Shown here piece after piece: positions 6,001 through 9,344 of a stretch of 64,000 nt of DNA. Position 1 is the stretch's first letter. Each line of letters starts with the position of its first letter. Position numbers: made by a program. The DNA is from a virus (Duplodnaviria; Heunggongvirae; Uroviricota; Caudoviricetes), in IMG/VR virus record IMGVR_UViG_2880395615_000008; one strand, written 5' to 3'.

Positions 6001-9000
6001 CGCCGGGGAGCAGGAGCAGACACCACCTGAAGGCTTTGAGTCCTCCGGGGCGGAAACCGCACTGGGCGTGGAAGTGACGAAGGCAAAGCCGGTGACGCGC
6101 ACCATTACGTCCGCGAACATTGACCGCCTGCGGGTCACCTTCGGGGTGCAGTCACTGTTGGAGACCACCTCAAAGGGCGACCGTAATCCCTCTTCTGTCC
6201 GACTGCTGATTCAGTTACAGCGTAACGGTAACTGGGTGACGGAAAAGGATGTCACCATTAACGGCAAGACCACCTCGCAGTTTCTGGCGTCGGTGATTCT
6301 GGATAATCTGCCTCCCCGTCCTTTTAACATCCGGATGGTCCGGGAGACAGCGGACAGCACCCCGGACCAGCTGCAGAATAAGACGCTCTGGTCGTCATAC
6401 ACCGAAATCATCGATGTGAAACAGTGCTACCCGAACACGGCGATTGTGGGGCTGCAGGTGGATGCGGAGCAGTTTGGCGGTCAGCAGATGACGGTGAACT
6501 ACCATATCCGCGGTCGCATCATCCAGGTACCGTCAAACTATGACCCGGAAAAACGCACGTACAGCGGCATCTGGGACGGCAGCCTGAAACCGGCATACAG
6601 CAACAACCCGGCCTGGTGCCTGTGGGACATGCTGACTCACCCGCGCTACGGCATGGGAAAACGTCTGGTGGCGGCGGATGTTGACAAGTGGGCGCTGTAT
6701 GCCATCGGGCAGTACTGCGACCAGACGGTCCCGGATGGTTTCGGGGGCACAGAGCCGCGGATGACCTTTAATGCGTACCTGTCACAACAGCGTAAGGCGT
6801 GGGACGTTCTCAGTGATTTCTGCTCGGCGATGCGCTGTATGCCGGTATGGAACGGCCAGACGCTGACGTTCGTTCAGGACCGCCCGTCGGATGTGGTGTG
6901 GCCGTACACCAACTGCGATGTGGTGGTGGATGATAACGGCGTGGGGTTTCGCTACAGCTTCAGCGCCCTGAAGGACCGCCACACGGCGGTGGAGGTGAAT
7001 TACACCGACCCGCAGAACGGCTGGCAGACCTCCACGGAACTGGTGGAAGACCCGGAAGCCATACTGCGCTACGGGCGCAACCTGCTGAAGATGGATGCGT
7101 TCGGTTGCACCAGTCGCGGTCAGGCCCACCGTGCCGGGCTGTGGGTGATAAAGACCGGACTGCTGGAAACGCAGACGGTGGATTTCACGCTCGGGTCACA
7201 GGGGCTGCGTCACACACCCGGTGACATTATTGAAATCTGTGATAACGACTATGCCGGGACCATGACCGGCGGACGTATCCTGTCCATCGATGCCGCCAGC
7301 CGCACCCTGACACTGGACCGTGAGGTGACCCTGCCGGAGACAGGTGCCGCCACGGTGAACCTGATTAACGGCAGCGGTAAGCCGGTGAGCGTGGCCATCA
7401 CTGCACACCCCGCGCCGGACCGGATACAGGTCAGCACCCTGCCTGATGGTGTGGAGACATACGGTGTATGGGGACTCTCCCTGCCGTCACTGCGTCGTCG
7501 CCTGTTCCGCTGTGTTTCCATCCGGGAAAACACGGACGGTACCTTTGCCATCACGGCAGTGCAGCATGTGCCGGAGAAAGAAGCCATCGTGGATAACGGG
7601 GCCAGCTTTGAGCCGCAGTCAGGCACCCTGAACAGCGTTATCCCACCGGCAGTGCAGCACCTGACGGTGGAGGTGAGTGCAGCTGACAGCCAGTATCTGG
7701 CGCAGGCGAAATGGGACACGCCGCGGGTGGTGAAGGGCGTGCGCTTCAGTCTGCGCCTGACCAGTGGAAGCGGTCAGGACAGCCGTCTGGTGACCACCGC
7801 CATCACTGCGGATACAGAGCATTGTTTCAGTGGTCTGCCGCTCGGGGAATACACCCTGACAGTCAGGGCAATTAACAGTTATGGCCAGCAGGGGGAACCG
7901 GCCACCACCACGTTCAGGATTAATGCACCTGCGGTACCCGCCACGATTGAGCTGACACCGGGCTATTTTCAGATAACAGCGGTCCCGCGTCTTGCGGTGT
8001 ATGACCCGACGGTACAGTTTGAGTTCTGGTTTTCGGAAACGCGGATTACCGATATCAGGCAGGTTGAAACCACAGCCCGCTACCTTGGCACGGGGCTGTA
8101 CTGGATAGCCGCCAGTATCAATATCAAACCGGGCCATGATTATTACTTTTATATCCGCAGTGTGAACACCGTTGGCAAATCGGCATTTGTGGAGGCTGTT
8201 GGCCAGCCGAGTGATGATGCATCCGGCTATCTGGATTTTTTCAAAGGAGAGATAGGGAAAACCCATCTGGCTCAGGAGTTGTGGACTCAGATTGATAACG
8301 GTCAGCTTGCGCCTGACCTGGCGGAAATCAGAACGTCCATCACGGATGTCAGTAATGAAATCACGCAGACCGTCAATAAGAAACTGGAAGACCAGAGTGC
8401 AGCGATCCAGCAGATACAGAAGGTTCAGGTTGATACAAATAATAATCTGAACAGCATGTGGGCTGTGAAGCTGCAACAGATGAAGGACGGACGCCTTTAT
8501 ATTGCGGGTATCGGTGCCGGTATTGAGAATACGCCAGCAGGAATGCAGAGTCAGGTGCTGCTGGCGGCAGACAGGATTGCGATGATTAATCCTGCGAATG
8601 GCAACACAAAGCCGATGTTTGTTGGTCAGGGCGATCAGATATTCATGAACGACGTGTTCCTGAAACGCCTGTTTGCGGTGAGTATCACGTCATCCGGCAA
8701 CCCCCCGACGTTTTCCCTGACGCCGGAAGGGAAGCTGACAGCCAGGAACGCGGATATCAGCGGAGCAATTACCGCGAATACCGGCACGCTCAATAATGTC
8801 ACCATTAACGAGAACTGTGTCATCAGAGGGAAACTGTCTGCAAACCAGATTGAAGGCGACCTGGTGAAGACGGTGGGGAAAGCCTTTCCCCGGAATAACA
8901 GTTATGCCAGCGGGACGGTAACCGTCACAGTTTACGATGACCAGGGCTTCGACCGGCAGATCATCATTCCCCCGGTGCTGTTTCGCGGGACGAAACACCA

Positions 9001-9344
9001 GAATTTCAACAGCCCGAATCAGCAGTCGTACTGGTATTCCACCTGTAAGCTGCAGGTGCTGAAGAACGGGGTTGAGATTTTCCATGAACCGGCAACGGAT
9101 GTCAGCCGGGTGTTCTCATCGGTGATAGATATGCCGGCAGGGCGGGGTCATGTCACCCTGACGTTTAATGTGTCGTCGGCCGGTGCGAACAACTGGACGC
9201 CGACAACGTACATCAGTGATTTACTGGTTGTGGTCATGAAAAAATCCACAGCAGGGATCAGTATCAGCTGACGGTTTATTAACCCGGACGGGCACCTCAG
9301 GAGGTGCCTTTTTTATTGACTGAAAACGAGAGGTCATCATGCGA

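Follow-up and report, generated by a model that had tools for sequence, protein, structure and literature searches.

The closest described relative of the proteins considered here is the central tail fibre protein gpJ of phage lambda (PDB 8iyk, 8xck and 8xcj), in which binding of the C-terminal immunoglobulin (Ig)-like receptor-binding domain to the receptor opens the tail tip (PMC11101478). Brodel et al. fused natural gpJ C-termini to lambda J in 2024 and found that two of the resulting chimeras, A8 and 1A2, deliver DNA via OmpC to lamB-deleted cells in a manner that depends on the OmpC allele (PMC11338833). With A8, delivery succeeds on the MG1655 and on the EDL933 type of OmpC; with 1A2 it succeeds on the EDL933 type and not on the MG1655 type, and 21 of 23 OmpC variants are served by A8 and/or 1A2 (PMC11338833). 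A structure of the A8 fibre on its receptor has also been deposited (PDB 9wcb, ‘Open state of A8 gpJ 713 central tail fiber with OmpC G17 from E. coli EDL933’). Here we describe two J genes, copy 1 and copy 2, carried by two tandem lambdoid prophages, A and B, in a stretch of 64,000 nucleotides of Caudoviricetes DNA (IMG/VR record IMGVR_UViG_2880395615_000008), referred to as a whole as the window. The tail-tip genes of these prophages are in all likelihood mosaics, in which the proximal backbone is shared, the distal fibre and lom come from distant lineages, and both receptor-binding domains belong to the A8 class and likely recognise OmpC.

The breakpoint in J

The two J proteins align without gaps and differ at 490 nucleotides and 151 amino acids. 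The initial annotation of this DNA had described them as nearly identical over most of their length, then divergent from position 8040 and re-converging at the extreme C-terminus. The identity profile is indeed far from uniform; in windows of 50 codons, amino acid identity is 0.88–1.00 up to residue 750 of the open reading frame (ORF), 0.56–0.80 over residues 751–1150 and 0.96 over the last 26, numbered on mechanically called ORFs that begin at TTG 5744 and 57202, upstream of the annotated starts. The maximum-likelihood position of a single breakpoint is 7924, at about codon 710 of the annotated protein, where the density of differences rises sharply from 4.2% on the left to 29.7% on the right, with a log-likelihood ratio (LLR) of 221, whereas 1000 permutations gave at most 8.6. 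The division of J into a near-identical and a divergent part is thereby borne out, with a boundary that lies about 116 nucleotides upstream of the one first proposed.

The re-convergence at the 3′ end holds mainly for the protein, in which the last 19 residues are identical, and less so for the DNA, whose identity there is just 0.91, with a proportion of synonymous differences (pS) of 0.375 that exceeds the left-hand background. A census of E. coli receptor-binding domains found these last 19 codons to be kept across nearly all types, and it is because of this conservation that the two copies appear to come together again. The description of the two tail modules as otherwise near-identical was too broad, as near-identity is confined to 3508..7923 and 11137..12939.

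Domain architecture and comparison with lambda

Both copies match six Pfam gpJ models at scores exceeding the curated cut-offs (82–141 bits versus 22–29), giving the complete gpJ domain series FNIII-A_GpJ, Phage-tail_3 hub, Ig_J (FNIII-1), Ig_J_second (FNIII-2), Phage_Tail_Tip and Ig_GpJ_C. Lambda J (PDB 8iyk_J) matches with E=0 and 1764 bits over residues 1–833 and 864–1157, and RefSeq annotations, ORFs and the lambda region agree on the gene context L–K–I–J–lom–stf. The Pfam limits of Ig_J (609–712) and Ig_J_second (714–816) therefore put the breakpoint on the boundary between FNIII-1 and FNIII-2, which is the same point at which the lambda structural construct ‘gpJ713’ starts (PMC11101478). 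Further along, Phage_Tail_Tip, the straight fibre, spans residues 870–998 and Ig_GpJ_C, the receptor-binding domain, residues 1035–1158. The proximal part of J builds the tail-tip hub, and the part that has been exchanged is the whole of the protruding fibre.

The window proteins resemble lambda gpJ in their six-domain architecture, in their length class and in their hub domains, which are 76–77% identical to those of lambda, and the same mechanism of tail-tip opening is expected of them. They differ from it in the receptor-binding domain, which is 44–49% identical and carries three loop indels, and in the helical shaft, which is 26 residues longer and 13–17% identical. A further difference is the receptor, most likely OmpC instead of LamB.

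Ancestry of the distal fibre

Synonymous divergence (dS) and the ratio of non-synonymous to synonymous divergence (dN/dS) were estimated for each segment of J by the Nei–Gojobori method. Over codons 1–709, dS is 0.136 and dN/dS 0.12; in the distal domains dS is 1.1–2.7 or saturated, and dN/dS is 0.04–0.22. Since synonymous sites are saturated with no rise in dN/dS, the distal part of J is of separate, far older descent and has evolved under ordinary purifying selection. The shift in dS at the breakpoint, at similar dN/dS, is therefore a matter of ancestry and not of local selection, and distal J marks a mosaic joint rather than a focus of positive selection. The same jump in dS, together with the occurrence of both alleles at 99–100% identity in other phages, in other combinations, supports the earlier proposal that the receptor-binding part of J had been exchanged, although the exchange takes in the whole distal fibre and is larger than was claimed.

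The donors and the joints can be followed in natural recombinants, for which the J proteins of seven phages were aligned, along with the DNA of the 3′ 1.6 kb of six of them (all except lambda). Domain by domain, the J protein of the Shiga toxin (Stx) phage 1717, an Stx2 phage, has 98–100% identity to copy 1, and its gene agrees with copy 1 at each of 386 successive informative sites (7981..9256) before becoming copy-2-type from the stop codon onwards. BP-4795 has a more intricate J gene, which is copy-1-like to about 8014 and copy-2-like from 8058 to 8668 (FNIII-2, shaft and fibre). It then agrees with copy 1 at 170 informative sites in a row (8683..9256) and reverts to the copy 2 type beyond the stop codon; its receptor-binding domain is 100% identical to that of copy 1. 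The corresponding donor-type alleles for copy 2 are found in CP-1639 and YYZ-2008, in which the fibre and receptor-binding domain are 99–100% identical to those of copy 2. The lambdoid phages of enterohaemorrhagic E. coli (EHEC), namely 1717, BP-4795, CP-1639, YYZ-2008 and the PPompW-type prophages, differ from the J genes of the window only in how the modules are combined. Two further phages, 2H10 and 4A7, have lambda-like J bodies (92–99% identical to lambda through the straight fibre) that bear receptor-binding domains of the A8 class, that of 2H10 being of the copy 2 type and that of 4A7 a patchwork of copy-1 and copy-2 alleles.

Crossovers fall at conserved joints, i.e. at the boundary between FNIII-1 and FNIII-2, at the end of the central straight fibre and at the stop codon, and these switch points therefore define variable cassettes flanked by short conserved joints. 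An assembly artefact was considered as the source of the divergent copies and excluded, since each of the two alleles recurs without change in many closed genomes and phage genomes.

The receptor-binding domains and their class

A search of PDB sequences with the C-termini of both J proteins returned ‘A8 gpJ 713’ (9wca, 9wcb) as the best match, ahead of lambda. Within the C-terminal 174 residues, A8 shares 98% identity with copy 2 (171/174, with differences at residues 1035, 1036 and 1097) and 78% with copy 1. The two copies are 77% identical to each other there, and lambda is 47–49% identical to any of the three. 1A2 is 65% identical to copy 1, copy 2 or A8, a figure that depends on a 1A2 sequence rebuilt by hand from supplementary DNA damaged by optical character recognition (OCR). 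A frameshift-tolerant tblastn search with the same damaged DNA gave overlapping high-scoring segment pairs with unreliable percentages, and its ranking alone was used.

In the census of E. coli receptor-binding domains, discrete classes are set apart by loop indels, and both window copies fall into the A8 class. They have the A8 loop lengths, comprising a short L1 ‘xxSYASGT’, the L2 insert and the L4 ‘GANNWTPTT’, and there are no indels among the two copies and A8. The motifs of the 1A2 class (L1 RDSRAPERWPSGT, a short L2 and L4 ‘AWLVNxWYPTA’) are absent from both. The putative receptor-facing loops were assigned by strand order to residues 1030–1039 (L1), 1065–1077 (L2), 1097–1105 (L3) and 1131–1142 (L4), and they coincide with the indel-bearing segments; the class-specific long loops, i.e. 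the L2 insert and GANNWTPTT, are almost unchanged between the copies, with differences at 3 of 13 residues in L2 and 1 of 12 in L4. An AlphaFold2 (AF2) model of copy 1 residues 985–1158 (predicted local distance difference test score, pLDDT, 84) has a nine-strand Ig-like fold, for which the best PDB match is 9wcb_F (E 1.2e-23, query TM-score, TMq, 0.78), followed by lambda 8xck and 8xcj; its root-mean-square deviation from 9wcb_F is 6.8 Å, reflecting a flexible neck.

The relation to the engineered chimeras is close in the receptor-binding domain and less so elsewhere. Copy 2 is A8-like throughout this domain, and copy 1 has the loop lengths and fold of A8, while the A8 chimera consists of an engineered lambda body in which the receptor-binding domain alone was swapped and the J proteins of the window have a whole distal fibre of EHEC-prophage type. 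1A2, as the second OmpC-using class, has its neck and C-terminal strand in common with the window copies and departs from them in the lengths of L1, L2 and L4, lacking the NFNS..QQSYW insert. Phages 2H10 and 4A7 represent naturally occurring counterparts of the engineered A8 chimera, and at the three positions that separate copy 2 from A8, 2H10 carries the A8 residue. From the resemblance to A8, OmpC is almost certainly the receptor of copy 2 and, to judge from both the sequence and the modelled fold of copy 1, probably that of copy 1 too. In the literature searched, no experimental receptor was found for long-tailed Stx phages, BP-4795 or 1717.

Alternative explanations

Rapid or diversifying evolution of the J C-terminus in place, after duplication of a prophage and without recombination, is suggested by the standing of receptor-binding proteins as classic targets of positive selection. 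It is rejected by the pattern of dS, in which distal synonymous sites are saturated and dN/dS is not raised, and it also has to contend with the unchanged state of both alleles in many other phages and genomes, with the discrete crossover points visible in relatives and with the fact that the prophages are not duplicates of one another, their tape-measure (H) and M proteins being 27–46% identical and their early regions unrelated; we consider it next to impossible. Scarcely more credible is that the distal fibres differ as an escape from a J-sensing defence and not through receptor choice. HepS-type sensing of a segment of the J straight fibre, around lambda F924, and silent variants in co-resident prophages have been described in Salmonella (PMC13043305), and 8 of the 32 residues of the equivalent segment differ between the window copies as read from the alignment. 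The trigger residue, F950 in the window proteins, is kept in both copies, no hepS-like gene turned up in the annotated region (no search was aimed at one), and such an escape would leave the replacement of FNIII-2 and of the receptor-binding domain unexplained. Codon 950 (8642..8644 and 60100..60102) encodes Phe in both copies and is the equivalent of lambda F924, the trigger of the abortive-infection nuclease HepS of Gifsy-1; both J proteins would be expected to be ‘triggering’ variants.

The assignment of both domains to OmpC has several points against it. OmpC use was demonstrated for the A8 and 1A2 chimeras, and the copy 1 allele, of the BP-4795/1717 type, would join them by resemblance; it departs from copy 2 at 40 of its 174 C-terminal residues, among them 7 of 9 in the putative L3 and 4 of 10 in L1; the loops are placed by an AF2 monomer model and strand-order reasoning, not by coordinates, and the 1A2 comparison carries the weakness of its hand-rebuilt sequence. 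A few substitutions, moreover, reportedly gave lambda J a new porin receptor in the work of Meyer et al. in 2012, a subject on which PMC11101478 also touches. The 40 substitutions between the copies, with some concentration in L1 and L3, and such retargeting of lambda J by few changes are what favour the suggestion of the initial annotation that the two phages may recognise different receptor proteins, e.g. OmpC in one case and LamB, OmpF, FhuA or another in the other. The enrichment of the 40 substitutions in loops is not significant (15/44 loop residues versus 25/130 others, Fisher p=0.06; p=0.2 in the Ig domain alone), both domains are of the same class, loop lengths and fold, copy 1 is nearer to the OmpC-binder A8 than the OmpC-binder 1A2 is, and both phages lysogenised the same lineage. 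Comparison with the bottom loops L1–L4 through which lambda binds LamB gives no resemblance in either copy, given the low identity to lambda and the three indels at the loops. Different receptors are thus not supported as proposed, and we regard them as improbable. A milder version, in which both copies use OmpC and differ in the range of OmpC alleles accepted, so that the co-resident prophages could reach partly different E. coli lineages, is a reasonable possibility short of an even chance. It is in keeping with the differing ranges of A8 and 1A2 on the panel of 23 variants (PMC11338833), with the three differences between copy 2 and A8 and with the many differences between the copies in the putative L1 and L3. 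Differences lie on strands as well as on loops, as expected of old neutral divergence (dS saturated, dN/dS about 0.12–0.2), which tells against it. That the two alleles differ functionally at all, in the OmpC variants accepted or, less likely, in the receptor protein, we consider somewhat doubtful.

A model for the assembly of the mosaic tail tip

Modular exchange, with both receptor-binding domains in the A8 class, is the explanation we prefer, and it runs as follows. L, K, I and the first ~709 codons of J, which encode the hub domains and FNIII-1, the builders of the tail tip, derive in both prophages from one common backbone. The distal J fibre (FNIII-2, helical shaft, straight fibre and receptor-binding domain) and lom were contributed by distantly related lineages, the parts being joined by homologous recombination at short conserved interdomain joints. 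In the assembled virion, a J trimer would close the tail tip and display the C-terminal Ig-like receptor-binding domain, and binding of that domain to an outer-membrane porin would open the tail, as for lambda on LamB and A8 on OmpC. Copy 1, if it does bind OmpC, would perhaps serve a different range of OmpC variants from copy 2.

The flanks of J

Homology between the tail regions at the DNA level begins abruptly at 3508 (54966 in prophage B), which is the M/L gene junction. The divergence that starts within J does not end at its stop codon but takes in the intergenic terminator and the greater part of lom, as far as about 11137–11172, and a second shared block (11137..12939), containing the lom 3′ end and stf, is 94.9% identical between the prophages. 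The coordinates of these and other features are collected in Table 1.

Inside the first shared block, which is otherwise about 95% identical, there are two perfectly identical stretches, of 314 bp (5516..5829 versus 56974..57287) and 365 bp (6740..7104 versus 58198..58562). Their sequence suggests recent gene conversion between the co-resident prophages.

Both J genes are followed by a putative terminator consisting of a GC hairpin and a T6 run. The stems differ, GGCACCTCAGGAGGTGCC after copy 1 versus GGCGTCAGAAATGACGCC after copy 2, so that the hairpin has been kept though its sequence was replaced.

The lom genes of the two prophages belong to different types. That of prophage A has 46–48% identity to all other lom compared, including those of prophage B and phage 1717, against 63% to lambda lom; the genes of the two prophages regain DNA identity only in their last ~50–90 nucleotides. 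Lom type is not linked to the type of J receptor-binding domain in other phages, and relative to the EHEC phages named above the lom that follows copy 1 is of a different type and broken by ISEc31. Inheritance of distal J and lom as a single cassette was considered and rejected, phage 1717 having a copy-1 J with a copy-2-type lom and a crossover at the stop codon. When the insertion sequence (IS) is excised in silico, joining the flanks 9339..9344 and 10603..11223, an intact lom of 206 residues with a signal peptide is restored. The same ISEc31 insertion is found in O55:H7 genomes.

Table 1. Coordinates of J, its modules and its flanking features in the window
Feature	Position	Strand	Remarks
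J copy 1, tip attachment / central tail fibre protein, prophage A	5795..9271	+	1158 residues, intact ORF; 100% identical to the RM12579 RefSeq gene
J copy 2, prophage B	57253..60729	+	1158 residues, intact ORF; 99.9% identical to gpJ of O157:H7 strain 611
Shared block, prophage A: L, K, I and J codons 1–709 (hub domains and FNIII-1)	3508..7923	+	~96% identity to 54966..59381
Counterpart shared block, prophage B: L, K, I and J codons 1–709	54966..59381	+	DNA alignment
Divergent distal part, J copy 1	7924..9271	+	Breakpoint scan; Pfam and lambda domain scheme (PMC11101478)
Divergent distal part, J copy 2	59382..60729	+	Last 174 residues with 3 differences from A8 gpJ (PDB 9wca/9wcb)
FNIII-2, J copy 1	7922..8242 (approximate)	+	Copy 2 identity 0.70
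Alpha-helical shaft, J copy 1	8243..8401 (approximate)	+	Copy 2 identity 0.62
Central straight fibre, J copy 1	8402..8785 (approximate)	+	Copy 2 identity 0.67
Receptor-binding domain, J copy 1	8786..9268 (approximate)	+	Copy 2 identity 0.75
Receptor-binding cassette delimited by natural recombinants	8683..9256	+	BP-4795 switches at 8668/8683 and 9256-9273
Conserved J 3′ end including stop codon, right-hand recombination joint	9212..9271	+	Common to most receptor-binding-domain types
Terminator-like hairpin and T-run after J copy 1	9291..9314	+	Read directly from the sequence
Terminator-like hairpin and T-run after J copy 2	60748..60771		Read directly from the sequence
ISEc31-like IS3 element, 1258 bp, after codon 2 of prophage A lom	9345..10602	-	3-bp target duplication CGA
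lom remainder, prophage A	10603..11223	+	Different lom type from prophage B
lom, prophage B, intact, 199 residues	60796..61395	+	ORF

The two prophages

In the window, two lambdoid prophages sit one behind the other at the ompW site of an E. coli chromosome of the O55:H7/O157:H7 lineage. Positions 1..19961, which are 99.6% identical to E. coli O55:H7 RM12579, are the tail end of prophage A, with the tape measure gene, M, L, K, I, J, ISEc31, lom and stf, followed downstream of stf by a degraded region carrying the effector genes nleH1-2 and nleF and an espO remnant, and then by a 3′ fragment of ompW. In RM12579 this fragment is followed by yciE and the trp operon, and prophage B is absent there. 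In the window the integrase of prophage B comes directly after the ompW fragment that closes prophage A (19681..19961 and onward), and with its early, lysis, head and tail genes, J, lom and stf this prophage looks complete. The same arrangement of prophage B, with additional IS elements, is present in O157:H7 strain 611, and the prophage is related to ‘PPompW’-type and Stx-phage genomes. None of the complete genomes of the collection that were compared matched the window over its full length.

Repeats of 120–170 bp, 79–93% identical and originating from the stf 3′ end or the sequence downstream of it, lie at 12732..12939, 13577..13707, 15835..16001 and 62902..63137 and are strewn over the degraded effector region of prophage A, where fragments of tail-fibre C-termini and a frameshifted integrase are also present. 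With its integrase region decayed and its lom broken by an IS, prophage A may be one for which the choice of receptor no longer matters. The scattered stf-derived repeats may be remnants of earlier insertions of prophages into prophages.

Significance of the exchange

The mosaicism of J in this window is biology that is already known, the ordinary modular recombination of lambdoid tail genes. It is textbook matter that lambdoid tail genes are mosaic at the level of domains and that the J C-terminus is portable, and use has already been made of this in engineering, in the A8 and 1A2 chimeras; both alleles are present in public phage genomes, and A8, which is near-identical to the copy 2 receptor-binding domain, has already been solved on OmpC. 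What the window provides is a clean natural example of the joints at which J is swapped. The copy 1 allele is widespread in Stx1a and Stx2a phages, and the receptor of the BP-4795/1717-type domain is relevant both to predicting the spread of Stx phages and to widening the choice of OmpC-targeting delivery vectors. If the two alleles do differ in function, polylysogenic EHEC would retain prophages whose host ranges complement each other, and the short hypervariable loops L1 and L3 would be the sites at which this range is tuned.

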